DNA from: Bacteroidales bacterium
Lineage (GTDB): Bacteria > Bacteroidota > Bacteroidia > Bacteroidales > VadinHA17
NCBI GenBank assembly: GCA_016715075.1
Contig: JADKBK010000006.1
Span: 95,509 to 159,508 of the forward strand
Length of the DNA stretch: 64,000 nucleotides
Direction of reading: 5' to 3'
Below the pieces are notes generated by a model. That model made no database searches and was not told the origin of the DNA. It saw nothing but the letters and a program-made list of their open reading frames with translations. Position numbers and translations under genes: made by a program. Positions 1,773-58,227 of the stretch are shown piece after piece (position 1 is the stretch's first letter; each line of letters starts with the position of its first letter).

Positions 1773-2975
<1,203 letters not shown>

Positions 2976-3121
2976 TTATTTACCTGGTTATTGTTAAACA
3001 GTTTTAACGGCTTTTAGTTAATCCCTGCTTCAGTTTACACCTGATTTCTTTTATGATAATCAGTGATACAAAGATGCATCCGTCTCAGATTATGAGGAAT
3101 ACCCTGTTTAAGGCATTTTAT

Positions 3122-3184
3122 ATACCACAAACATGGTATGATATTTAAATATGGAGTCCGGTCAATATACCACAGATATGGTAT
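3122..3184. promoter_or_regulatory. two 7-2-7 inverted repeats (TACCACA-nn-yATGGTA), candidate NarL/FixJ-type operator pair upstream of metY
   Basis: ATACCACAAACATGGTAT at 3122-3139 and ATACCACAGATATGGTAT at 3167-3184, 45 nt centre to centre. They lie 170-235 nt upstream of the metY ATG (2951) and abut the stop of the LuxR-type regulator gene. Confidence 0.35.
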
Positions 3185-3189
3185 CGAAA

Positions 3190-3858
3190 TCAGATATGAT
3201 ACTCAATAAGGTTAATCCATCCCGCCTTAATGGCATACATAATGAGTTCGGAGACACTTGTAACACCAAGCTTCCGGAATATATTCTTACGATGTGTTAT
3301 CACGGTATGAATGCTGATATACTTTCTCAGCGCAATCTCTTTGGTAGTCAGTCCATCTGCAATAAGCCTGACAATGTCCATTTCGGAATTTGTAAGCTGA
3401 CCAGCCTCTTCTCCAGAACTCTTTTTATCATTTGGTTCAAAAAGGAGATCGAGCAGTTCATTTGAGTAGAATTTTCTGCCTTTCAGTGTAGCAGCAAGAG
3501 CTTCAAAGAACTCTTCCTTACCAGTGGTCTTAAGTATAATATTGTTGATGCCAAGATTATTCAGTTCAAGCATCTCGGCCCTGGTCAGGCCGTTCGTCAT
3601 AACAAGTATCCTAAGATGAGGGTGATTGGCTATTATCTCCTTTAACTCCGACAGGCCCGACAAATCAATAAAAGAGGGATCTGTGATCAGCAGTGAGATG
3701 TAATTCCCTGCCAGTTCTGAGGCGAGATCTTTTTTTTCTGTTACTACTTTGCTTACATAGAAACGACTGTCATTCTGAAGAATCATATTCAGGGATTCCG
3801 TGATAAGGAACTGGCTGTCGGCAATCAGAACCCCGATATTATTCTCAGTGCTGGTCAT
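3190..3858 (-). CDS. NarL/FixJ-family response regulator (receiver + LuxR-type HTH), no adjacent kinase
   Basis: 222-aa ORF. The C-terminal HTH reads LTNSEMDIVRLIADGLTTKEIALRKYISIHTVITHRKNIFRKLGV. The receiver keeps the putative phospho-Asp (LLITD), T (VMT) and K (ILK), but the first acidic pair is AD rather than DD. Confidence 0.75.
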   Translation of the reverse strand: MTSTENNIGVLIADSQFLITESLNMILQNDSRFYVSKVVTEKKDLASELAGNYISLLITDPSFIDLSGLSELKEIIANHPHLRILVMTNGLTRAEMLELNNLGINNIILKTTGKEEFFEALAATLKGRKFYSNELLDLLFEPNDKKSSGEEAGQLTNSEMDIVRLIADGLTTKEIALRKYISIHTVITHRKNIFRKLGVTSVSELIMYAIKAGWINLIEYHI

Positions 3859-5230: not shown

Positions 5231-6061
5231 TTACCTGGCGGAATTTATAACAGCTTCTTTTACTGAATCAGAGAGCATCTCGTTCATGGAACCTGAGCGG
5301 TAGCCAATGAGATCTATCGTGACAAATTTGAATCCTGATTTAAGACAAATATCAGTCAGTTTTTCTTTCATCTTCCAGGCTTTGTCCATCTCTGATGGTA
5401 TGAATTCAAACCTGGCCAGGTTTTCGTGGCTTCTTATTCTAAACTGACTGAATCCCAGGCTTCTGACAGAATATTCAGCCATAGCAAGCCTGTCAAGTTT
5501 CGGTTTTGTAATCTGTTCCCCATAAGGGATGCGTGACGCAAGACATGCATATGATGGTTTTGAAGCAGTCGGCAAATGAAATTCTTCTGAATAATGTCGA
5601 ATATCGCTTTTTGAAAAACCTGCCTCGGCAAGCGGGGAAATTACACTTTTTTCCTTCTTCGCTTTCATCCCAGGTCTGTAATCCTTCATATCTTCAGCGT
5701 TGCTTCCATCGAAAACAACATCGAAGCCTTCCTTTGCTGCAATGAATTGAATTTTGCCGAAGAGTTCACTTTTACAAAAATAACACCTGTCTGGAGGATT
5801 GGCAGCATATTCGGGATTATCTATCTCCTCCGTAATGATTATTCTATGCTTGATTTCCATCATCTCTGCAAGAGCCTTTGATTCTTCAAGTTCATAGAAA
5901 GGATTTGTACTGGAAGTAGCAGTAATCAGTAAAAGGTTGTCTCCATAAACATCTTTAGCCACCCTGGCCAGAAAAGTACTGTCAACCCCACCTGAAAAGG
6001 CAACTACTGCATTCCTATATTCTTTGAGTCTGGCTTTTAATAGATTTAGTTTATTCTCCAT
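5231..6061 (-). CDS. larE: LarE-type ATP-dependent sulfur insertase (PP-loop ATP pyrophosphatase, TIGR00268-like)
   Basis: 276 aa. It has the PP-loop AFSGGVDSTF, plus DYRPGMKA, SYACLASRIPYG and GYRSGSMNE that parallel LarE. The three Cys (CYFCK + ACLASR) suggest the Fe-S-cluster type. Confidence 0.7.
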   Translation of the reverse strand: MENKLNLLKARLKEYRNAVVAFSGGVDSTFLARVAKDVYGDNLLLITATSSTNPFYELEESKALAEMMEIKHRIIITEEIDNPEYAANPPDRCYFCKSELFGKIQFIAAKEGFDVVFDGSNAEDMKDYRPGMKAKKEKSVISPLAEAGFSKSDIRHYSEEFHLPTASKPSYACLASRIPYGEQITKPKLDRLAMAEYSVRSLGFSQFRIRSHENLARFEFIPSEMDKAWKMKEKLTDICLKSGFKFVTIDLIGYRSGSMNEMLSDSVKEAVINSAR

Positions 6062-6082
6062 TTGTCAATATTTTTTATATTC

Positions 6083-7592
6083 TTACTTTCTGTAAAGACA
6101 GCATTCAGGCAATGATTTATATTTAACATCATCGGCTTTAAAAAGTTCGTTATCATGTCCAACTTTCGCAATTGCCTTCCCTGATAATTTTATCATTTGT
6201 TCTGGTACTGTCAAAATCTAATGAGAGCCTGCCTGTTTTTAGCTCCCATACAGCATTGATGACACCTTCCACTTCCAACGCGGCTTTTTCAATCCTCGTC
6301 TTGCACATATCGCATTTCCCCGATACACTGAAGACCGAGTGAGTTATGTTCCCTTCCGGTGTTTTTGTACCGTTCATCATACTTGGCTTTCCGGCAAGCT
6401 GAGCAGCGGCATCAACACTGAATGTACCGCTGGTTACAATTTCTTCACCTTCGGAAAGGCCGTCAGTAACCACATAACTCTCTCCAAGCATCGGGCCAAG
6501 ACCTATCTCACGTACTTTAAATACCGGTTCATCCATCAGAGGCTGTTTAACATAAACAATTGATCTCTTTCCTGTCCATAAAACAGCTGATTTTGGAATT
6601 ATAAGACTGTTATCGTAACCTTCGAGTAAAGAGGTGACAGTACCTGTCGCAAACATTTCAGGTTTTAGCTTCCCTGATTGATTGCCTGTTTCAACCCTTA
6701 CTTTAGCCACCCTTGTAACAGGGTCAATGACAGGATCAATGAAGACAATAATGCCTTTAAAGTCAATACCTGGCATTGCCTGTATGGAAAACGAGATTTT
6801 TGCATTAATTTGCAGGAACTGGAGATCGCTTTCGTAGGCATCAAACATGATCCAGACTTTCGAAAGGTCTGCAATTTCAAATAAAACTGTACCCTGTGAA
6901 ACATGATCACCGGAGTTAACCCTTCGGGCAGTCACAGTTCCGGCTGTATTTGAAACCACTTCAAAATTGTTTATGATAACACCTGATTGTTCAATTTTCC
7001 CTATCTGTTCATCTGTGAGTTTCAGCTGTCTGAGCTTTTCCCTGGCAGCTTCATATAATTGAGGTTGCAATTGTTTGGTCTTAACAGTTTCCAGTAATTC
7101 CATCTGGGCAGTTATAAGTTCCGATGAATAGATTTCTGCCAGTACCTGGCCTTTCTTCACTGATTCCCCTGTAAAGTTTACGAACAATTTTTCAATCCGG
7201 CCAGGAAAATGGGCAACCTGACTCTGGAACAGTCTTTCGTCAGCCTGTACTTTTCCATATAGGCGCACATCTTTTACAGCCATTTGCTTTTTAACAACTG
7301 AGGTAAGTACATTGGCTAACTGAGCCTCCTCTTTGCTTAGATGAATACTCTCAGGATCAACCAGCGCAGCGCTGCCTTCTCCCAGCGGAATTAATTCCAT
7401 ACCGCAGATAGGACATTTCCCTGGTTCTGTCATTCTTATGTGGGGATGCATGGAGCATGTCCAAATTGAGCTTTGTACAGCCTCTGTTGACTGAGCTGCG
7501 TTTTTAACGCTTTGTGAGGAATGAAATATGAGCCAGCCGGCAAAAAATCCTGCAAGCAGGGATGTAATTATAATTATTATTCTATTTTTCAT
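6083..7592 (-). pseudogene. cusB: RND efflux periplasmic adaptor (CusB/CzcB-like) with N-terminal metal-binding motif and C-terminal CDMC HMA-like domain; 3' frameshift
   Basis: ORF 6153-7592 (479 aa) carries WTCSMHPHIRMTEPGKCPICGMELIP, a barrel-sandwich hybrid region and C-terminal SGKCDMCKTRIEKA. The conserved tail KAIAKVGHDNELFKADDVKYKSLPECCLYRK* is encoded in another frame down to the stop at 6083-6085. The shift is at CCC 6179-6181. Confidence 0.75.
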
Positions 7593-13425: not shown

Positions 13426-13612
13426 AATCTGTGTTACTTTGTGAGATACTTTGTGCCAGCAGAAAAAGTAGTTTTTACCCCCCAACCCCCCAGGGGGGGC
13501 TTTAAAACTTATTGGTTTTAAATAAGTCCCCCCTGGGGGATTTAGGGGTGTCACAGAGAAAATCGACTTTTTCTACAGCCACCAGGGATACCCAAAGGTA
13601 CACCAGAGATTT
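13426..13612. repeat. intergenic element A: ~190-bp imperfect palindrome with two inverted C-tract/G-tract core modules
   Basis: The arms AATCTGTGTTACTTTGTGAGATACTTTGTGCCAGCAGAAAAAGTAG.. and ..CGACTTTTTCTACAGCCACCAGGGATACCCAAAGGTACACCAGAGATT are inverted. The core-like modules sit at 13475-13500 and 13527-13550. Confidence 0.7.
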
Positions 13613-14102: not shown

Positions 14103-15371
14103 CTAAACGACCATTCCGGCTGCTACGGTCTCATTTGTTCCTTCGTCAATGAATATCATACTGCCTGTGATATTGTTCTCTTTATATGGGTCAAAAAATA
14201 CCGGTTTGGATGTCTTTATGCTGATGTATGCAAGATCGTTCATATTTACCACCAGATTTTCATAATCATGTTCAAGGGTATCAATGTTCATCCTGTAGCC
14301 AACAGATTTTACAATGCATCCTGCTTCATTACTGTTCATGCGGATAAGATATTTTCCGCCAACCTTCATAGGCAGTTCATTGAACCAGCAGATCATAAGG
14401 TTGATATCCTGACTGATAACCGGCAGATCATTTGAACCTGCCAGCATGTCACCGCGGCTGATATCTATCTGGTCTTCAAGGGAAATTGCGACAGAATCTC
14501 CGCCGATTGACTCAGATATTGTTTTTCCGAACATATCAATGCTACTGATTTTTGATTTGCGCAGTGACGGGAGCACAGTAACCTCATCACCCGGTCTGAA
14601 TACTCCTCCGGCAACTCTTCCTGCATAGCCCCTGTAATCATGAAATTCGGAGGTATGGGGGCGAATTATTGTCTGAACGGGAAAGCGTTGATGCAAAGGA
14701 TTCTTATTCTTCCTTATTTCAATTGTCTCAATAAGGTGAAGGAATGTTTTCCCGCTGTACCATTTCATGTTTTCAGAATTGTCAACAACGTTATCTCCAT
14801 ATTTGGCACTTATCGGAATATAATGAGGATCTTCAATTTTAAGTTTTTTAACAAGCGCTGACAGTTCCGTTTTTATATCGGTGAAGACAGATTCAGACCA
14901 GTTCACCATATCCATCTTGTTAATACAGAATATTATGTGCCTGATGTCAAGGAGCGAAGCTATATAGGAATGCCTCAGAGTCTGTTCGAGTACACCCTTT
15001 CTTGCATCGATAAGTATTACAGCAAGATCGGCAGTGCTTGCTCCTGTAACCATGTTCCTGGTATACTGGATATGACCCGGTGTGTCAGCAATAATGAACT
15101 TTCTGGCAGGAGTTGCAAAATATCTGTAGGCTACATCAATTGTAATTCCCTGTTCCCTTTCTGCTCTCAGTCCGTCTGTCAGGAGTGAGAGATCAAGTTC
15201 TTCCCTGCCTAGCCTCTTTCCAGACTGAACTATGTGCTCCATCTGGTCCTCAAAGATTGATTTGCTGTCATACAGAAGCCTTCCTATGAGCGTACTCTTT
15301 CCGTCATCCACACTGCCAGCTGTAGTAAATCTCAGAAGACTCTTGTTTTTGCTTTTACCGTTTATTGTCAT
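14103..15371 (-). CDS. cysN: sulfate adenylyltransferase subunit 1 (GTPase), no fused APS-kinase domain
   Basis: 422 aa with the G1 motif GSVDDGKSTLIGRLL, then DTPGH and NKMD. Confidence 0.9.
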   Translation of the reverse strand: MTINGKSKNKSLLRFTTAGSVDDGKSTLIGRLLYDSKSIFEDQMEHIVQSGKRLGREELDLSLLTDGLRAEREQGITIDVAYRYFATPARKFIIADTPGHIQYTRNMVTGASTADLAVILIDARKGVLEQTLRHSYIASLLDIRHIIFCINKMDMVNWSESVFTDIKTELSALVKKLKIEDPHYIPISAKYGDNVVDNSENMKWYSGKTFLHLIETIEIRKNKNPLHQRFPVQTIIRPHTSEFHDYRGYAGRVAGGVFRPGDEVTVLPSLRKSKISSIDMFGKTISESIGGDSVAISLEDQIDISRGDMLAGSNDLPVISQDINLMICWFNELPMKVGGKYLIRMNSNEAGCIVKSVGYRMNIDTLEHDYENLVVNMNDLAYISIKTSKPVFFDPYKENNITGSMIFIDEGTNETVAAGMVV

Positions 15372-15382
15372 TTGAATCTATT

Positions 15383-15609
15383 TCCTTAAACTTTGAACCT
15401 TAAACCTTAAACCTTAAACCTTAAACCTTGAACTTTAATTACCCACCCCTGGCCCCTCCCAGGAGGGGAACCGGATTCCACTGCGCCCTGCGCCCTGCGC
15501 CCCGAATTTACCCACCCCTGACCCCTCCCAGGAGGGGAACCTGTATCCATTGCGCCTTACGCCCTCAGCCCTGAGCCCTACGCCCAGCCTTCGCTAAAGC
15601 TACGGCTGG
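15383..15609. repeat. intergenic element B between cysD and cysN: heptamer arrays + two core modules + terminal hairpin
   Basis: (ACCTTAA)~8 at 15383-15438. Core 1 TTACCCACCCCTGGCCCCTCCCAGGAGGGGAACC at 15439-15472. (CTGCGCC)3 at 15481-15501. Core 2 at 15508-15541. (CTNNGCC)5 at 15550-15584. Hairpin CCAGCC..GGCTGG at 15584-15609. Confidence 0.8.
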
Positions 15610-15622
15610 CACTGCCTGAGCC

Positions 15623-16528
15623 TTAGAAATATCCTTCCTTCTTCCTGTCTTCCATTGCTGCCTCTGACCGCTTATCGTCATATCTGCCACCTCTTTCGGT
15701 GACCCTGGTTGCTGCGATTTCAGCAATGATCTCTTCCAGTGACTGAGCTTTTGAGAGAGTTACACCGGTACAGGTTATATCTCCAATAGTACGGCAGCGG
15801 ACATCAGCCTCGAATACCTCTTCATTAGGTTTTAACTGCATAAAAGGTGCCCATGCAAGATAAGTGCCGTTTCGGCTGAATATTTTTCTTCTGTGGGTAT
15901 AGTAAAGATCCGGAAGCTTTATGTTCTCAGTTAGTATGTATTGCCAAACGTCAAGCTCAGTCCAGTTACTTATCGGGAAAACCCTGAAATGTTCTCCCTG
16001 GTGTTTTTTACCATTGAATATATTCCATAGTTCAGGCCGCTGGTTTTTCGGATCCCATTGTCCAAATTCATTCCTGTGAGAAAAGAAGCGCTCCTTGGCC
16101 CTTGCTTTTTCCTCATCACGCCTGCCACCTCCTATAGCTACATCGAGTCTGAGTTCTTCAACTGCATCGAGCAATGTTACTGACTGAGCCTTATTACGGC
16201 TGGCATTTATTCCCTGTTCCTCTTTTACTCTTCCCCGATCGATAGAGTCCTGGACATAGCGGACTATGAGGTCTGCCCCGAATTCTTTCGCCAGATCGTC
16301 CCGGAATTTGAGTGTCTCCTCAAAATTATGGCCTGTATCTATATGCATCAGGGTGAAAGGTATTTTGGATGGCCAGAATGCCTTCCTTGCAAGATGTACA
16401 AGCACTATGGAATCCTTTCCTCCCGAAAACAATAACACCTTGTTCTCGAACTGGGCAGCTACTTCCCTCATCACAAAAATTGCCTCATTTTCAAGCTCCC
16501 TGAGGTGTTCATTATTAATATCCAACAT
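15623..16528 (-). CDS. cysD: sulfate adenylyltransferase subunit 2
   Basis: 301 aa with the PP-loop LFSGGKDS and the C-terminus DRKKEGYF. Confidence 0.9.
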   Translation of the reverse strand: MLDINNEHLRELENEAIFVMREVAAQFENKVLLFSGGKDSIVLVHLARKAFWPSKIPFTLMHIDTGHNFEETLKFRDDLAKEFGADLIVRYVQDSIDRGRVKEEQGINASRNKAQSVTLLDAVEELRLDVAIGGGRRDEEKARAKERFFSHRNEFGQWDPKNQRPELWNIFNGKKHQGEHFRVFPISNWTELDVWQYILTENIKLPDLYYTHRRKIFSRNGTYLAWAPFMQLKPNEEVFEADVRCRTIGDITCTGVTLSKAQSLEEIIAEIAATRVTERGGRYDDKRSEAAMEDRKKEGYF

Positions 16529-16553
16529 TGTTGTATTGATTTTTTCCGTTCAA

Positions 16554-17274
16554 TTACTTAACATGACAACCGCATTCCTTATTGCCTTCATTTTCCCACC
16601 ACCAGCGGCCGGAGCGAAAATCATTTCCCCTTAAGAACTGGCCTTGTGCATGGCTCACAGCCTATGCTCAAATAACCCTTGTCATACAATGAATTATATG
16701 GAATACTGTTTTCCTTGATATAGTTATCGACATCTTCCAGCGACCAGTCAAACAGGGGATGAAAATTGAAAAGCTTCTTGTCACTGTCATATTCCAGATC
16801 ACTCATCTGGCTCCTGTTACCGGACTGGTCTGCCCTTATCCCTGAGATCCAGCAAGCCATCCCTGCCAATGCTCTGCTAAGGGGTACAACCTTTCTTAAC
16901 CTGCAGCATTCCTTGCGGTTATCTATTGACTCAAAGAAACTGAAGGGCCCTTTTTCCGTGACCAGCTTCTCAACTGAAAGATAATCCGGGAAATAGACCT
17001 CAATTTTTTTCCTGTATTTTATTGTGGTCTGTGAAAACACCTCATATGTCTCAGGGAATAATCTGCCTGTGTCAAGCGTTACAACCCTGATTGGCAGATT
17101 GTTGGAAAATATTTTCTGTGTAATAACCTGATCTTCGACTCCAAAACTTGTAGTAAATATTACCTGGCCGGGAAAAAGAGTAGTAAGGATCTCAAGTCGA
17201 TCTTCAATCGATTTACCTGACAACTGATCCCTCAACTCCTTTAACTTCATATTGTTTGTCATTTTGTTTTGCAT
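16554..17274 (-). pseudogene. cysH: assimilatory adenylyl-sulfate (APS/PAPS) reductase, Fe-S type; 3' frameshift removes the catalytic tail
   Basis: ORF 16621-17274 ends ..SIGCEPCTRPVLKGK*. The conserved tail GNDFRSGRWWWENEGNKECGCHVK* is encoded in another frame down to the stop at 16554-16556, with the shift within TTTCCCC 16624-16630. The CC (KECCRLRK) and CxxC (CEPC) motifs are present. Confidence 0.85.
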
Positions 17275-17563
17275 TCGATTTTGTCCAAAGTTTTAGTTTA
17301 ATCTTGTGTATGTGAGCCCATAGCCGCTCATGGAAATAGTAGAGAATTGTCTTGGTGAGTACTTCTACACTGCCTATTGAAAGTGCTATTGTAACTTTCC
17401 CGGTGATAAAATAGCTGATTATCATTGTGTCGATCGTGCCAACAATACGCCAGGAAACAGATTTCATGATGCTTTTAATCGGTTTATCGGCCCGGTCGCT
17501 TACTTTAAGGACAGCACCCGGAACAAACTTTTCTTCAGGCTGGTTTAACAGTACATCAAGCAT
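17213..17563 (-). CDS. DUF2061-like small membrane protein at the head of the cysHDN operon
   Basis: 116-aa ORF with SVSWRIVGTIDTMIISYFITG..ILYYFHERLW. Its 3' end overlaps the cysH ORF by 62 nt, so the true end is uncertain. Confidence 0.5.
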   Translation of the reverse strand: MLDVLLNQPEEKFVPGAVLKVSDRADKPIKSIMKSVSWRIVGTIDTMIISYFITGKVTIALSIGSVEVLTKTILYYFHERLWAHIHKIKLKLWTKSNAKQNDKQYEVKGVEGSVVR

Positions 17564-17578
17564 AGATTAATTTTTGAA

Positions 17579-17586
17579 CAAAGATA
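17579..17586 (-). promoter_or_regulatory. Bacteroidota-type -7 box (TATCTTTG) upstream of the DUF2061-cysHDN operon
   Basis: The minus strand reads gtcTATCTTTGttc about 16 nt upstream of the ATG at 17563, with a TTG about 20 nt further upstream. Confidence 0.3.
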
Positions 17587-17795
17587 GACTCTAGAATTAT
17601 ATGATTCAATGGCAATTATGCGACAAACAAATGAGTATTTATACATATCGGGCTATATGTACTTAACTCCATTTTAACAATTAAAAAAGGAATTCTTTTT
17701 ATTAATTGGCAGTTTATCAGAAGTAATTTGTCATTTCTGCCCTCAGAACAGACCCGGGAACCGGAATGAATCAGAGGCAATAATACTAAAGTGAA

Positions 17796-19249
17796 TCAGC
17801 TGGTTTTTTTAGAGGCTATCTGCTTAATCCGCCGGACCAGATTTCTGAGATCATTCTCTGTTGTTACCGGATTTATAATTGTTACTCTTAACCAGATTTT
17901 ATTTTCAAGTTCCACTTGTACAATATAGAACGATCCCTCTTTGACTATGCTCTCCCTGATTTTTGAATTCAGACTATTCAGCTGATTATCATTATATTCT
18001 GTGGGAGCATACCTGAAACATACTATATTACTCTCAGGTTCTGCAGCCAGCTCAAAATCGTCAGCGGACTTAATAAAAACAGCGAAAGATGCTGCAAGAT
18101 CGTACCTGCTATCGATATATTGGCGATAATAACTTTCCCTGTAATATTTCAGTGCGGTATATGCTATTATTCCCAGGGAACTTTTGGTGCATTCAATAGT
18201 TCTGATTGCGCTGTCATACCAGGGCAAGCTCTTTGATTTCTGAAAAAGGTAGGAAGCTTTCTGCGCAAAAGTTTCGAATGACCTTTCTCCGTTCTTAAAC
18301 ATTATAAGTGTATTGAGTGCAGGTACTAGAAGCATTTTATGAAAGTCGATTACCACCGAATCGGCTCTTTCAATTCCCCTGACAAGGTTTCTGTATTTTT
18401 CAGAAAACAGAACCCCCATTCCATGAGCTCCATCAACATGCATCCATAAGTTATGTTCCTCACAGAAATCTGCGATGGAGCTCAGGTCATCATAGGTCCC
18501 TGTTGCAGTGGAGCATGCGTTTGCAACCACCGATATCACATTCAATCCTTTCTGCTCGGCTTCCTTTTTCAACTTGAGGAGAAGAGCTGTTTTCATCCTG
18601 TAACCTGCATCCACCGGAATCCGGATAACGGATTCATTTCCAAGTCCATGATTCTGACATTTCTGCCGATACTGTAATGTGCCTGGTCTGAGATCATATA
18701 TCCGGGTCTTTTTGCATCGTGTATCCCTTCCTCCCAGATATTGTAGTCAGTCTTTGCCTGTCTTGCTGCCAGCATTGCTGTCAGGTTCCCCGCTGTTCCT
18801 CCGTGCGTGAAGATCCCGTCATATCCCGTGTTATATCCAATGAGTGAACCAAAAAGTTCGATGATATTCCTTTCCATTGCCATTGAAACAGGTCCCATTT
18901 CATAAATTGCAGCACCATTGTTCAGAAGCGAAGTGCAAACCTGAACAAGGGCAGTAAGGGGTAGGGGTGAAGTGACCTGATGGCCTATGTAATGCGGATG
19001 ATGAAGGTGATTTGACATCGAAATGATCCTTCTTATAAACTCGTCAAACGGCTCTTTGTCACCACCACCTGAGGTAAATGAAAATACCCCTGAAAGATCA
19101 TCAGGTTCATTCCAGGGAAGGACAGCCATCTCTTTGCCAGAAAGCGCTTCGCTCAGGTATTCTGACAGTGTATCAATTACCTGATGCCCCAGTTTTCTGA
19201 ACTCCTCAGGATCAAAGGGCTTTGGAATTACAGATTCAGTTTTATTCAT
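17796..19249 (-). pseudogene. group II pyridoxal-dependent amino-acid decarboxylase, split by a frameshift
   Basis: ORFs 18593-19249 (..HPHYIGHQVTSPLP..THGGTAGNLTAM..DQAHYSIGRNVRIM) and 17796-18614 (..ANACSTATGTYDD..WMHVDGAHG..DFHKMLLVP) are N- and C-terminal halves. Adding one base at TTTCC 18637-18641 restores ..IMDLGNESVIRIPVDAGYRM... Confidence 0.75.
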
Positions 19250-34109: not shown

Positions 34110-35166
34110 CTAAACAAAGAAGTCAACATTTTCAGATGTGATTATATCTACAGGAAGGTACTCTATTTTTTCAGGCATCTTATTGAGTGAAAGGAATTCG
34201 AAGAGCTTCTTAACTGCCTTATATGTCTGTTCTTCCGGACGCTGTCCGATAAGGAAGCGTATATTTCCTGATTGCAGATACAGTACATTTTTATCCAGTA
34301 GGTCATATCCGATGAGGTTAATGGTTTTTAATCCTTTTTCCTCGAGACAGGCAGCAATCAGATAGGATTTCGACCCCGACATGAATATTGAACCTATTCC
34401 TGGATTCACACTGAAAGCTCCATCGATAGCGTTTCTGATATTGTCCTGAGTAGGGTCGGCTATGCTGATTTGAATCTTTTTACCCCTGTTGCGGCCCGAT
34501 TTCCCGAAATAGCCAAGAAAACCCTGCATACGTTTGTTAAGGTGAGGTACATTCTGGATGTTTCTTGCGAAATTGATAATTAAAATGTCGCTCTCAGCCG
34601 GAGTAATCATATCAGCAAGCTGTCCGGCTACTCTTCCACTTCTGTAAATATCCTCCCCGATATATGCCAGGAAATTTGTATTTTCAATAAATCCGTCAAC
34701 AAAAACAAATGGAATGTTTATTTCATTAAGTCCCGAGCAGAAGACTACTGATTCAGATTTGAATATAGGAGCGAGCAATACCCCGTCAGGTTTTCATACT
34801 AAGAATATTCCTTGACTTTCTCTGAAAATCTTCCTCATTGAACATATCAAAAGTGATCTGAGTGAGACTTACACGGAACAGGTCAAGCTCTTCGATAGCC
34901 CTGTTTATCCCTGCTGAATGCTTTTCCCAGAAAACGTTATCCTTAGAAGGCTCGGGAAGAAGTGATATGAGATGATAGCCTTTTCTTGATTTTAATACCT
35001 GGGCCATAACATCAGGGGAATAATTTGTCTCTTTCAGTATCTGCCTGACCTTTTCCCTGGTTTTTGCAGCAACCCCATCCCGTTCATGCAACACCCTGTC
35101 GACAGTCCCAATCGATACTCCGGCAAGCCTTGCAATATCTTTTATTCTGCTTTTCTTCGGCGTCAT
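34110..35166 (-). pseudogene. LacI-family transcriptional regulator, split by a +1 frameshift between the HTH and sugar-binding domains
   Basis: ORFs 34786-35166 (IKDIARLAGVSIGTVDRVLH) and 34110-34778 are halves of one regulator. Removing one T from the T4 run at 34791-34794 restores ..NILSMKPDGVLLAPIFKSE... Confidence 0.8.
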
Positions 35167-35218
35167 GAACGGTTTATCAGTATAGTGAGATTATGCACAG
35201 TTTACAGCTTTTAATTTC

Positions 35219-35353
35219 GGACTTCGGTCTTCACTTGTTTTAACCCACCCCTAACCCCTCCAGGGAGGGGAATCAGGAGCATCGGACTTCGGACTTCGGA
35301 CTTCGGACTTCCGACTTCGGACTTCCGACTTCCGACTTCGGACTTCCGACTTC
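35219..35353. repeat. intergenic element C: core module + ~10 tandem heptamers (SGACTTC)
   Basis: GGACTTC GGTCTTC at 35219-35232. Core TTAACCCACCCCTAACCCCTCCAGGGAGGGGAATC at 35240-35274. (GGACTTC/CGACTTC) x ~10 at 35284-35353. The element ends 5 nt from the exuT stop. Confidence 0.8.
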
Positions 35354-35358
35354 ACCTT

Positions 35359-36647
35359 TTATTTAATAATCGGTTTAAGATCATCACCCAGGGGAGTCAT
35401 AGTCGGCATCATCCAGTGTACTATTCCAAGAATGACAAGATATAAAGTGCCGGCGATCAGGAAGGCAAAGAAATAGCCCTCTTTTCCCTGGGCATCGAGT
35501 ACTGAACCCAGGCTGAAATCGGCAATAATTCCTGATATAGCTCCGATCATACCTCCAATACCTACGACAGAGGCAGTTGCCTTTTTCGGGAAAATGTCAC
35601 TCGCGAAAGTGAAGACATTGGCAGACCATGCCTGGTGTCCTGCGGCAGCAATTCCTATCAGGACAATTGCAATCCATTGGTTATCAGTTTTTGTAGCGAA
35701 GGAGACAGGTAGTATTATTATTCCGCACAGGAGGAGGGTTATTTTACGGGAGAAATTAATGCTTCTTCCGCTTTTTATCAGTTTTGATGAAAACCATCCG
35801 CCCAATACACTTCCAAAATCAGCCAGTACATAGATTATGATGAGCGGAAGGGCAAGTGTTTTAATATTTATGCCAAACTGGTCGAAGAGGAATTTTCCTC
35901 CCCAGAAGAGATAGAACCACCATACAGCATCAAGGACCTTTGTAAGGAGAATGCCCAGGTTTGTTTCAGGGGCAAGACCCTGGCCCAGGGGATCTTCTCA
36001 GTTGTTTCAACGTCAGAGTCACTTAGTATGTATTCCAATTCAGCAGCTGACAGCTTGGGGTTGTCCTCGGGCTTCTTATATATCTTAAGCCACATAAAAA
36101 CCCATAACCCTGACAGGACTCCTGTAAGCAGAAAGGGATATCTCCATCCGTCACCGTTATCGGCAACAAGGAACATAACAACAATGGGAGCGAGGATAGC
36201 GCCAATACTTGTAGCTGCATTAAATATGCCTGTTGCCAAAGCTCTCTCTTTTTTGGGAAACCATTCTGCAACGGTTTTTATGCTTGCAGGAAAGTTACCA
36301 GCTTCACCGAAACCGAGACCAAACCTGGCCAGGATGAATCCTATAAGCGCAAAGCTTTTGGATATAGTGGCGTGCAGCATTCCAAAAATGCTCCAGATTA
36401 TTATTGAAAGGGTAAAGCCCTTCTTGGTTCCGAGCCGGTCGATAAGGCGGCCCATAAGAAGTAGTCCTATTGCATATGCCGTTTTAAAAGACATGTTTAC
36501 AAGTGCATAATCCTTATTGGACCATTTGAAAATCTCCATTAGCTTGGGAGCCATTACTCCCAGTAAACTTCTGTCGAAGTAGTTAATTGTCAGAGCGAAG
36601 AAGAGCATTGCCAATATTCGCCAGCGATAGTTTCCGGTAGTACTCAT
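35359..36647 (-). pseudogene. exuT: MFS hexuronate transporter, split by a frameshift
   Basis: ORFs 35868-36647 and 35359-35805 are halves of one transporter. The continuation KVLDAVWWFYLFWGGKFLFDQFGINIKTLALPLIIIYVLADFGSVLGGWFSSKL is in another frame. One base is missing at about TTT 35939-35941. Confidence 0.75.
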
Positions 36648-38177: not shown

Positions 38178-38240
38178 GGTTCTGGGTACTGGTTTCTGGT
38201 TTCTGGGTTCGATCACCCAGCACCCAGCACCCAGCACCTA
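38178..38240. repeat. intergenic element D: inverted heptamer arms (GGTTCTG-like x5 / GCACCCA x~4)
   Basis: GGTTCTG GGTACTG GTTTCTG GTTTCTG GGTTCGA TCACCCA GCACCCA GCACCCA GCACCTA. It starts 3 nt from the oxidoreductase stop. Coordinates were checked against ORF 38156-38368. Confidence 0.8.
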
Positions 38241-40578: not shown

Positions 40579-40669
40579 GGTTCTGGGTTCTGGGTTCTGG
40601 GTTCTGGGTTCTGAGTTCCAGCACCCAGCACCCAGCACCCAGCACCCAGCACCCAGCATCCAGCACCCC
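40579..40669. repeat. intergenic element E: (GGTTCTG)5 - AGTTCCA - (GCACCCA)5 GCATCCA GCACCCC inverted heptamer arms
   Basis: Read from the sequence. Copy number was confirmed from the track translations that cross it (FWVLGSGFWVL..STQHPAPSTQHPA on +; GAGCWVLGAGCWVLGAG..TQNPEPRTQNPEP on -). It ends 3 nt from the uxuB stop. Confidence 0.85.
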
Positions 40670-45219: not shown

Positions 45220-45311
45220 GCACCCCCCCCCGGCCCCCCCCGGAGGGAGGGGGTAAATCAGTGTTATTACCAGATTTTTACCCCCCACTCAGGGGGGGCC
45301 GGGGGGGTAAG
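45220..45311. repeat. intergenic element F: palindrome of two inverted poly-C/poly-G core modules
   Basis: Left arm GCAC9GGC8GGAGGGAGGGGGTAAATC, loop AGTGTTATTACCA, right arm GATTTTTACCCCCCACTCAGGGGGGGCCGGGGGGGTAAG. It lies between kduI and kduD. Confidence 0.8.
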
Positions 45312-45355
45312 AAATAGCAACAAAACATTTGAATTACACATAAACATTTCTATAT

Positions 45356-57971: not shown

Positions 57972-58227
57972 GATGTCATTCAATAGTCATTTATGTCATT
58001 GCGCAGGTCATTAGTGGTCGTTAAGTGGTCATTAAGTGGTCATTAAGTGGTCATTAAGTGGTCATTAAGTGGTCATTGGTCAGGTCTAGCAGTACTTTAC
58101 AATAAATGACGGCCGCAGGCCAAATGACCATCGAATGACGGCCGCAGGCCGAATGACTATGAATGACGCGGATTTTATACACTGTAGCCTTGGCGAAGGT
58201 GTAAGGCCGGATGACCATCGAATGATG
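57972..58227. repeat. intergenic element G: GTCATT-rich left arm with 11-mer array (GGTCATTAAGT x~5) and AATGAC-rich right arm
   Basis: 11-mer array at 58016-58070. The right arm repeats AATGACGGCCGCAGGCCRAATGACYATSG twice (58105-58160) and carries the hairpin-like module AGCCTTGGCGAAGGTGTAAGGCCGG. The element lies between convergent genes. Confidence 0.75.

Follow-up and report, generated by a model that had tools for sequence, protein, structure and literature searches.

The long cysD–cysN spacer of a Bacteroidales bacterium is probably a local cluster of dispersed repeats

In a 64-kb stretch of a Bacteroidales genome (contig JADKBK010000006.1; the whole stretch is hereafter called the window), the genes for the two subunits of sulfate adenylyltransferase, cysD and cysN, are separated by a composite repeat element of 251 nucleotides (nt). 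We consider it probable that two classes of dispersed repeat have expanded locally in this spacer, where they form a cluster together with one lineage-specific hairpin, and that the element is not a dedicated sulfur-gene switch. The first class consists of heptanucleotide tandem arrays of the short tandemly repeated repetitive (STRR) type, and the second is represented by two cores of 31–34 nt, each comprising a pyrimidine arm of 7 nt, a 2-nt loop, a purine arm, a 3-nt linker and a mirror G-tract; the third component is a 26-nt hairpin that lies just past the cysD stop codon. The element is presumed to be co-transcribed with cysD and cysN, and its GC-rich upstream modules would have no more than the role of generic intercistronic structures resembling repetitive extragenic palindromic (REP) sequences, so that the element would not owe its existence to any effect on the CysD:CysN ratio, which would be incidental or a by-product that can be tuned. 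The core itself may depend for its spread, as a non-autonomous partner, on a small DUF559 (Vsr-like) endonuclease gene flanked by inverted cores, and its G-rich strand may be able to fold into a hairpin-plus-third-strand triplex.

Organisation of the spacer and related repeats in the window

The open reading frames (ORFs) and their Pfam matches show that the interval fills exactly the minus-strand gap from the cysD stop codon to the cysN ATG, as a preliminary description of this DNA had proposed (Table 1). CysD homologues at 86–95% identity are named CysD or sulfate adenylyltransferase subunit 2 in their source records and belong to Bacteroidales or Bacteroidetes metagenome-assembled genomes (MAGs). 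The cysD frame ends in ...KKEGYF followed by TAA at 15625–15623, and cysN opens with ATG-ACA-ATA-AAC at 15371 to give an N-terminus, MTINGKSKNKSLLRFTTAGSVDDGKST, that is alignable with those of relatives.

Tandem Repeats Finder and repeat comparison recovered the anatomy given in the same description: about eight ACCTTAA units, two cores, three CTGCGCC units, degenerate heptamers and a hairpin. In the mRNA sense, the hairpin starts 13 nt past the cysD stop codon and has a single copy in the window, and it is followed by degenerate G-rich heptamers in which Tandem Repeats Finder delimits a period-7 array of 4.7 units at 15553–15585 with 76% matches. Core copy 1 then presents a 7-bp C/G hairpin, a 3-nt linker and the mirror G-tract GGGGTGG. 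The last component is the ACCTTAA array, which reads AAGGUUU/AAGGUUC in the mRNA; it is AU-rich, ends 12 nt from the cysN ATG and thus forms the bulk of the cysN leader, whose final 30 nt have a GC content of 27%. The two cores belong to two 67-nt copies (15439–15505 and 15508–15574) that are offset by 69 nt and are 85% identical, both of which open with the 34-nt core and start with TTACCCACCCCTGRCCCCTCCCAGGAGGGGAACC. Core copy 2 and the adjoining positions 15473–15505 represent the second copy of this 69-nt duplicated module. The 19-nt heart of the core occurs in the window as two exact copies and one with three mismatches (35255–35273), and it had no occurrence in 100 dinucleotide-preserving shuffles of the window.

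Period 7 is the dominant tandem-repeat period of the window, and outside the spacer Tandem Repeats Finder reported heptamer arrays of 10.3, 4.7, 3.6, 5.7 and 7.3 units. Heptamers occupy four loci in the 64 kb, all between ORFs, and each of the three loci beyond cysDN lies between genes of the same (minus) strand. The array spacers share a sense-strand layout of stop codon, GC-rich repeats, AU-rich leader and ATG. One of these sister elements, in which the array proper covers 35282–35353, contains a third core and is flanked by a LacI-type gene (34786–35166) and a gene fragment of the MFS family (35359–35805), both on the minus strand. Poly-C/poly-G variants of the core also form two inverted doublets with members about 30 nt apart, and the left member of the doublet at 13477–13552 belongs to the GGGGG family of the mirror-rule variants described below. 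As for the traits of miniature inverted-repeat transposable elements, inverted doublets are present, and no consistent target duplication was seen at core/heptamer junctions. The repeat modules are therefore generic, being found at other spacers of the window and, as shown below, across phyla, which tells against a device specific to cysDN.

Distribution of the core across genomes

A scan for exact matches to CCCACCCCTNNCCCCTCCNNGGAGGGG, with one genome taken per species, returned at least 120 genome loci; these and the other comparison loci are labelled with L-numbers. Among the matches listed, the cyanobacterial hosts are the filamentous Okeania, Moorena, Symploca, Trichodesmium, Nostoc, Anabaena and Prochloron, with exact copies in Nostoc and Anabaena at L055, L062 and L083. 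The Bacteroidota hosts among them are Bacteroidales MAGs, Pontibacter, Chitinophaga and Hyunsoonleella, and further listed hosts include Moduliflexus/UASB14, Verrucomicrobiota, Calditrichota, Hydrogenedentota, Planctomycetota and others.

Cyanobacterial cores commonly interrupt a heptamer array, with the identical unit on both flanks. A perfect period-7 run adjoined the core in 28 of 84 cyanobacterial copies compared to 5 of 84 control positions, and the counts for runs of period 5, 6, 8 or 9 were 0–4. In Bacteroidales MAGs (L015, L114, L006 and L120), the flanks of the core carry degenerate heptamers (ctgcgct/ctgagcc, aaccttg and cccagca) as in the window. Tandem core copies were found in L024, inverted doublets in L110 and L118, and cores nested in the loop of another core in L033, L082, L095 and L109; nesting was seen in these other loci and not inside the window. 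Carriage by phages was rejected, since 2.9 million viral contigs yielded only 10 solo core copies and no adjoining DUF559 gene.

In two loci (L050, 1460–2400; L224, 1900–2200), the core and a constant 31-nt segment make up a 63-nt tandem repeat, with ~15 copies in L050 and 5 in L224. The L050 repeat continues in frame after a DUF559 ORF and runs into ispG, encoding a 21-amino-acid (aa) protein repeat, KPTPDHSQEGNPKEDNPAKMI. A reading of the regularly spaced cores of L050 as a CRISPR array was rejected because the intervening 31-nt segments are constant, as in a plain tandem repeat.

A mirror rule in the G-rich strand of the core

The sequence of the core on the G-rich strand is CCCCTCC-NN-GGAGGGG-NNA-GGGGTGG, in which the last segment mirrors the purine arm with T replacing A; the cores at 15439–15472, 15508–15541 and 35242–35272 of the window are examples. 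We took all perfect pyrimidine/purine hairpins in the collected sequences and anchored the third segment at a fixed linker length. With a 3-nt linker, the rule was obeyed by 172 of ~196 main-type copies and by more than 20 other arm types, and almost no fits were obtained with other linker lengths. Opposite A, the third segment carried T in 211 cases and A in 30. Variants that follow the rule include CCCTCTCC..GGAGAGGG-ttg-GGGTGAGG, TCCCCTC..GAGGGGA-ttt-AGGGGTG, CCCCCCTT..AAGGGGGG-tta-GGGGGGAT, CCTCCCC..GGGGAGG-tta-GGTGGGG, CCCCTCT..AGAGGGG-ttt-GGGGTGT and TCTCCC..GGGAGA-ttt-AGAGGG.

An antiparallel purine-motif triplex needs G*G-C, T*A-T or A*A-T base triples. From the three-way covariation we infer the signature of an intramolecular purine-motif triplex of the H-DNA-like type. 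In the cysDN spacer, the mRNA and the non-template DNA strand both correspond to the G-rich strand. In minimum free energy (MFE) structures, the third segment is predicted to pair with the C arm in the Watson–Crick manner; this alternative fails to explain the T at the mirror position and was discarded. A G-quadruplex was likewise rejected as the conserved feature, since four G3 tracts are missing from the orthologous cores of L122 and L209, which keep the mirror pattern. No prior description of the mirror/triplex signature, or of the core string, was found in the literature searched.

DUF559 genes flanked by cores

In 7 of the 120 core loci listed, a DUF559 ORF of ~120 aa (PF04480, E 2e-30) ends at or reads into a core, and the C-rich strand of this terminal core is the sense strand of the gene. 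Eight of nine DUF559 genes examined (Table 1) have a G-strand core that precedes the start by 15–70 nt and, at the stop codon, a C-strand core, and because of this arrangement the gene is bracketed by inverted cores. Among the best 120 DUF559 homologues from a collection of 5.8 billion proteins, 79 have a C-terminus of the form ...KNKPTPxPSxEGN, which is the core translated in frame 3; in four others of the 120 the terminus is THP-stop, the TAA falling within the core, and tandem tails are present in several. A group I intron homing endonuclease is among the members of the VSR/DUF559 clade of PD-(D/E)xK nucleases (PMC3424549). No link between DUF559 and repeats was found in the papers searched that mention DUF559. 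The core-flanked genes look like a partnership of the kind formed by REP sequences and REP-associated tyrosine transposases (RAYTs), with a different enzyme.

History of the spacer in relatives

The genomic contexts of close CysD homologues and 80 metagenome loci provided 77 relatives in which the spacer was measured, and none of the 77 departs from the order and strand of cysD and cysN. In the 12 relatives with at least 86% CysD identity, the spacer is 80–217 nt long (median 135). It has a median of 36 nt in the 65 more distant Bacteroidota-type relatives, where 33 are at 40 nt or below and four gene pairs overlap, and the gap in E. coli K-12 is 1 nt. The claim that the spacer of the window is unusually long thus stands.

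Among the relatives (Table 1), L122–L125 have the same element in shorter form, and at L223 and L210 the spacer is repeat-free or reduced to 14 nt, respectively. In an alignment with L122, the spacer of the window contains, in addition to the L122 version, ~10 nt of further G-rich heptamers, an insertion of 69 nt and three more AAGGTTT units. Relative to L122 and L124, the 69-nt insertion comprises heptamers and the second core, and this module is absent from L122–L125 as a whole. The ACCTTAA array has three units fewer in L122, L123 and L125 than in the window and one fewer again in L124, a copy-number polymorphism of one heptamer between near-identical strains. Outside the window, the 26-nt hairpin was found only at the orthologous site in L122–L125. 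The alignment indicates that the element is inherited from an ancestor common to the metagenomic relatives and that it later grew by heptamer gain and by a 69-nt duplication carrying the second core. Heptamers unrelated to those of the window occupy the cysD–cysN spacers of L126, L131 and L136, which are equally close relatives, and also those of L142, L155 and L190.

That the repeats were misjoined or expanded during assembly, a possibility raised in the preliminary description, is scarcely credible. Short-read contigs do stop at the element: L001, which is 98.35% identical to positions 15620–17740 and represents the same or a related strain, ends 3 nt past the cysD stop codon, and L127 ends inside a GCCGGTA array. 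On the other hand, the orthologous element is present between cysD and cysN in four independent metagenome assemblies of the Joint Genome Institute (JGI), 15% of positions differ between the two 69-nt modules, unlike in collapsed or duplicated reads, and the flanking reading frames are intact. The non-identical core copies and the four independent assemblies therefore make a mis-assembly unlikely.

Several further observations concern the same junction in relatives. In L129, another repeat family has colonised the cysD–cysN junction. In L131, a core copy (2434–2464) lies in the cysH–cysD spacer, not between cysD and cysN. The JGI gene calls at L122 (3045–4535), L123 (3184–4674) and L125 (3896–5386) give a cysN of 496 aa that reads through the element for 74 codons and overlaps cysD, and JGI calls of cysD in relatives have longer N-termini (317–350 aa). 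The repeats have probably caused these extended calls, as artefacts of annotation, and the 74-codon extension of cysN is a caution for gene callers.

Conservation of the spacer

Fourfold-degenerate sites of cysD and cysN are 39–43% identical between the window and L122 and 28–43% identical in all other pairs; these sites are saturated between the window and its relatives. By comparison, the spacer is identical to that of L122 in 126 of 160 aligned columns (79%, a value inflated by the alignment of arrays), and the hairpin with its 5' flank in 36 of 40. Because the spacer reaches 79% identity against ~40% at fourfold sites, it is maintained in the lineage of the window, L122 and L209, by selection or by concerted evolution, and other lineages manage without it. 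None of the four free positions of the core agrees between the orthologous copies, which fits replacement, and a multi-copy core can be homogenised through conversion or re-insertion.

This conservation is also the starting point of a rival explanation, in which the spacer would be dedicated to the tunable, post-transcriptional regulation of cysN: heptamers and G-rich modules would set cysN translation or cysD mRNA stability, and slippage would serve as a rheostat of the subunit ratio. We regard it as unlikely. In its favour, the spacer identity to L122 persists despite saturated synonymous sites, the post-stop hairpin is conserved, an AAGGTTY array is kept beside the ATG in the window, in L122 and, as remnants, in L209, and a one-unit heptamer difference separates L124 from L122, L123 and L125. 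REP elements within E. coli operons are said to stabilise the upstream mRNA, a report attributed to Newbury et al. in 1987. The heptamers of hmw1A supply a proven precedent, the best experimental one for this idea (PMC12721329). However, relatives equally distant in protein sequence have a different spacer or almost none (L126, L128, L210 and L223), and the components are generic and present at unrelated genes. The predicted folding is no better than that of shuffled sequences, AAGGUUU is unable to pair with the G-rich part, no long hmw-like hairpin is predicted, and sulfate activation would be an atypical contingency function.

Transcription, translation and folding of the spacer

No intrinsic terminator was predicted on either strand of 14900–16900, and no spacer hairpin is followed by a U-run. 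A scan for sigma-70-type promoters found none on the minus strand, Bacteroidetes promoters being outside the model of the scan. The TAnnTTTG motif, which Bayley et al. in 2000 reportedly identified as the −7 box of Bacteroidetes promoters, is absent from the spacer and from the last 140 nt of cysD. These predictions make the co-transcription proposed in the preliminary description plausible. They also leave very little room for the reading that the spacer splits the operon through a cysD terminator, a separate cysN promoter or both; the length of the spacer, its GC-rich hairpins and the coverage of the promoter scan could be cited for it, but the missing terminator-like sites and TAnnTTTG box and the conserved order and strand of the two genes in all relatives measured make it highly improbable.

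No Rfam 15 family matched at its gathering score anywhere in the window, and the best sub-threshold match in 15300–15700 at a relaxed E-value reached 17 bits (E ~2–10). Across 34 spacers, whole-spacer folding energy was no better than that of dinucleotide shuffles (median z −0.29), with values of −1.6 for the window spacer, −2.3 for the window spacer with flanks and −0.1 for L122. Selection for a global RNA structure is thus unsupported, and local hairpins in the spacer are supported by folding. In MFE structures, the AAGGUUU array pairs weakly, either with itself or with the 5' sequence of cysN, and never with the G-rich part.

Directly upstream of the cysN ATG, the final 30 nt have a GC content of 17–33% in all 11 lineages tested, and the mean unpaired probability of the cysN start region is 0.5–0.8. 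Bacteroidota are reported to initiate translation without Shine–Dalgarno pairing. Translational coupling would be impossible across a 251-nt spacer, so cysN would be initiated independently of cysD, from the unstructured, AU-rich leader formed by the AAGGUUU array. An influence of the element on the CysD:CysN ratio is plausible. A coding reading of the spacer was rejected because the window has a stop codon in frame with cysN ahead of its ATG, and the small ORFs called by the JGI in the spacers of relatives have no Pfam match.

Further features of the window

The two inverted heptamer pairs at 38178–38238 and 40579–40668 (GGTTCTG versus CAGCACC-type units) are predicted to form long imperfect hairpins with one mismatch per 7 nt, directly 3' of the stop codon of the upstream gene; comparable pairs occupy the space between cysD and cysN in L131 and L190. 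Periods other than 7 are represented by tandem repeats at 58006–58168, where GGTCATTAAGT is present in 6.6 units and a 29-nt unit in 2.2. A pyridoxal-dependent decarboxylase is encoded at 17796–19249 (minus strand) by two overlapping ORFs of 272 and 218 aa, and by a single gene of 484 aa in L125; a frameshift, a pseudogene or a sequencing error are possible explanations.

Table 1 Features of the window, cysD–cysN spacers of relatives and DUF559 genes with core copies.
Sequence	Feature	Position	Strand	Description
Window	cysD, sulfate adenylyltransferase subunit 2, 301 aa	15623–16528	minus	Upstream cistron; Pfam PAPS_reduct, E 3e-44
Window	cysN, GTPase subunit, 422 aa, without CysC fusion	14103–15371	minus	Downstream cistron; Pfam GTP_EFTU (E 8e-43) and GTP-eEF1A_C
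Window	Intercistronic spacer, composite repeat element, 251 nt	15372–15622	minus	G-rich strand is mRNA sense
Window	Hairpin, 26 nt	15584–15609	minus	CCAGCC-GUA-GC-UUUA-GC-GAA-GGCUGG; 6 bp, 3 × 3 GNA/GAA internal loop, 2 bp
Window	Degenerate G-rich heptamers, ~5 units	15551–15585	minus	mRNA sense GGGCGYA / GGGCUSA
Window	Core copy 1	15508–15541	minus	Plus strand TTACCCACCCCTGACCCCTCCCAGGAGGGGAACC; two-copy repeat comparison
Window	CTGCGCC × 3.1 array	15481–15502	minus	mRNA sense GGGCGCA; 100% matches (Tandem Repeats Finder)
Window	Core copy 2	15439–15472	minus	TTACCCACCCCTGGCCCCTCCCAGGAGGGGAACC; repeat comparison and alignment to L122/L124
Window	ACCTTAA (CCTTAAA) × 7.9 array	15384–15438	minus	Tandem Repeats Finder score 82, 85% matches
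Window	Sister element, heptamer GAAGTCC/TCGGACT (× 10 plus 2)	35216–35353	minus	Third core copy (35242–35272) inside array
Window	Sister element, mutually inverted GGTTCTG × 4.7 and CACCCAG × 3.6	38178–38238	minus	Between 6PGD gene and GFO/IDH/MocA gene
Window	Sister element, inverted GGTTCTG × 5.7 and CCAGCAC × 7.3	40579–40668	minus	Between Lar_N gene and uxaC fusion gene
Window	Inverted doublet, poly-C/poly-G core variant	13477–13552		ACCCCCCAACCCCCCAGGGGGGG, 28 nt, TCCCCCCTGGGGGATTTAGGGGTGT; REPIN-like
Window	Second inverted doublet, poly-C/poly-G variant	45220–45312		…CCCCCCACTCAGGGGGGGCCGGGGGGG; chance expectation 0
L122, L123, L125	Spacer, 160 nt			CysD identity 95%; same element: hairpin, two G-rich heptamers, one core, 4–5 GGTTCAA/AAGGTTY units
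L124	Spacer, 153 nt			CysD identity 95%; as L122 minus exactly one heptamer
L209	Spacer			CysD identity 92%; same part order, variant core (CCCCCT/AGGGGG/GGGGGA), without hairpin
L126	Spacer			CysD identity 93% (97% across C-terminal 119 aa); GGCGACA × 3 and GCCGGTA × 5
L131	Spacer			CysD identity ~90%; GGTGCTG arrays
L136	Spacer			CysD identity ~86%; TGCGTCG × 6
L129	Spacer	2242–2458		CysD identity ~91%; different repeat, gattgcttcgtcgca...gctcctcgcaatgac, three copies
L210	Spacer, 14 nt only			CysD identity 91%
L223 (complete MAG OW818650.1)	Spacer, 93 nt			CysD identity 88%; repeat-free; AAACGAT × 6.4 in cysH–cysD spacer
L050	DUF559 gene with core copies	1100–2400
L037	DUF559 gene with core copies	3039–3371
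L104	DUF559 gene with core copies	139–492
L106	DUF559 gene with core copies	5785–6135
L074	DUF559 gene with core copies	2003–2368
L062	DUF559 gene with core copies	1568–1924
L224	DUF559 gene with core copies	1501–1941
L226	DUF559 gene with core copies	1501–1920

Discussion

The sister arrays and third core of the window, the exact core copies in other phyla and the relatives that do without the element all point to a spacer assembled from dispersed repeats. Several observations weigh against this reading. Copy counts for the source genome refer to the 64-kb window, which limits the claim of dispersal. No DUF559 gene lies in the window, and the exact DUF559 proteins that were looked up occupy fixed, syntenic positions, for example between cysS and ispG, so that any current or recent mobility of the gene is putative. 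The triplex is suggested by covariation, and copies of the same variant are kin by descent. The G-rich strand of the core tends only weakly to be the sense strand of the flanking genes (13:3 in Bacteroidota, where the copies are non-independent, and 11:9 in cyanobacteria). In addition, the high conservation of the spacer, and especially of its single-copy hairpin, is also compatible with a real function in cysDN expression, and the argument from homogenisation does not extend to the hairpin unless this is repeated elsewhere in the genome.

A bolder interpretation would treat the core as an undescribed mini-element superfamily that spans phyla, folds as a G*G-C / T*A-T triplex and forms, with DUF559, a counterpart of REPIN–RAYT systems (REPINs being inverted REP doublets) with another enzyme and another DNA structure, and that has been co-opted here as a conserved, length-variable module for tuning cysN. 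We offer this only tentatively and think it somewhat doubtful. The locus indicates that a two-subunit enzyme of the cys operon can tolerate the complete loss of translational coupling, and spacers in this clade are as a rule long and filled with repeats (80–251 nt in the window and the 12 relatives with at least 86% identity). A 27-nt motif with only four free positions is common to cyanobacteria, Bacteroidota and other phyla. If the motif, its mirror rule and the bracketing of DUF559 genes hold up, a concrete substrate would be assigned to DUF559, a very large family whose function is unknown, and for the small dispersed repeats of bacteria both a way of spreading and a non-B DNA structure would become testable. 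Of more interest than the cysDN spacer itself are two leads, the mirror/triplex signature and the partnership of the core family with DUF559.

Comparison with known systems

STRR heptamer arrays were reportedly described by Mazel et al. in 1990 from heterocystous cyanobacteria. Elhai et al. in 2008 are said to have defined the small dispersed repeats (SDRs) SDR1–8 as units of 21–27 nt that are embedded in tandem heptamers, are nested and share a common fold. Like STRR sequences, the arrays of the window are tandem repeats of a 7-nt unit in several copies at several intergenic loci, whereas the host here, as judged from the nearest CysD homologues, belongs to the Bacteroidales and not to the original heterocystous cyanobacteria. 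The core matches this description of SDRs in being a short hairpin unit within tandem heptamers (at 35216–35353 and in cyanobacterial cores), in its nested and tandem copies, in its intergenic sites and in the preservation of one fold across variants by compensatory changes, since more than 20 arm variants keep the hairpin and the mirror segment. It differs in its length, 31–34 nt instead of 21–27 nt, and in its occurrence in many phyla. The name small dispersed repeats and the citation of Elhai et al. (2008, Genome Res 18:1484) are found in PMC3116915 and PMC5861425, and such repeats have been reported solely from Nostocaceae (PMC5861425).

TAACTGA heptamer arrays occur patchily across phyla, in Beggiatoaceae, Cyanobacteria and five Bacteroidetes (MacGregor 2015, PMC4679880). 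They are intergenic, often within operons and directly before start codons that lack a Shine–Dalgarno sequence, the array is missing at the same site in close relatives, and a translational role has been proposed but not demonstrated (PMC4679880). The cysDN arrays resemble them in their intergenic and intra-operon position before start codons and in the close relatives without an array at the site, but consist of AAGGTTT, GGGCGCA and other heptamers, with many unit types per genome that are joined with a hairpin core.

As in REP sequences and bacterial interspersed mosaic elements, the core is a short GC-rich extragenic palindrome that is found singly or in inverted doublets between the cistrons of operons; unlike REP sequences, it has no GTAG/CGTC tag, carries the extra mirror G-tract and is associated with heptamer arrays. 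In the REPIN–RAYT systems of Proteobacteria, RAYT genes are flanked by REPs (Bertels and Rainey 2011, PMC3116915). The putative partner gene of the core is similarly flanked by inverted repeat copies, but would encode a DUF559/Vsr-like PD-(D/E)xK endonuclease and not a Y1 transposase of the IS200/IS605 type.

G-quadruplex-forming heptamers have been described from Xanthomonas and Nostoc at intergenic sites that include the one between pecE and pecF (Rehm et al. 2015, PMC4692102). The GGGCGCA array of three units is likewise G-rich and the window cores have four G-tracts (GGGAGGGGYCAGGGGTGGG), but this four-tract pattern is lost in the cores of L122 and L209, and the largest array, AAGGTTT, is incapable of forming a G-quadruplex. 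In Haemophilus influenzae, the (ATCTTTC)n repeat in the 5' untranslated region of hmw1A pairs with a G-rich region and is cut by RNase III, and expression is inverse to repeat number (PMC12721329). The cysDN spacer also has a simple sequence repeat of heptamers with a variable number of copies, which lies beside a G-rich region in a leader that is probably transcribed. It differs from hmw1A in that no long hairpin between array and G-rich region is predicted, and in that the array lies in the intercistronic spacer of a housekeeping operon and is known from sequence. Taken together, the cysD–cysN spacer belongs to a known kind, that of heptamer arrays with small repeats, in a combination previously undescribed in this phylum.

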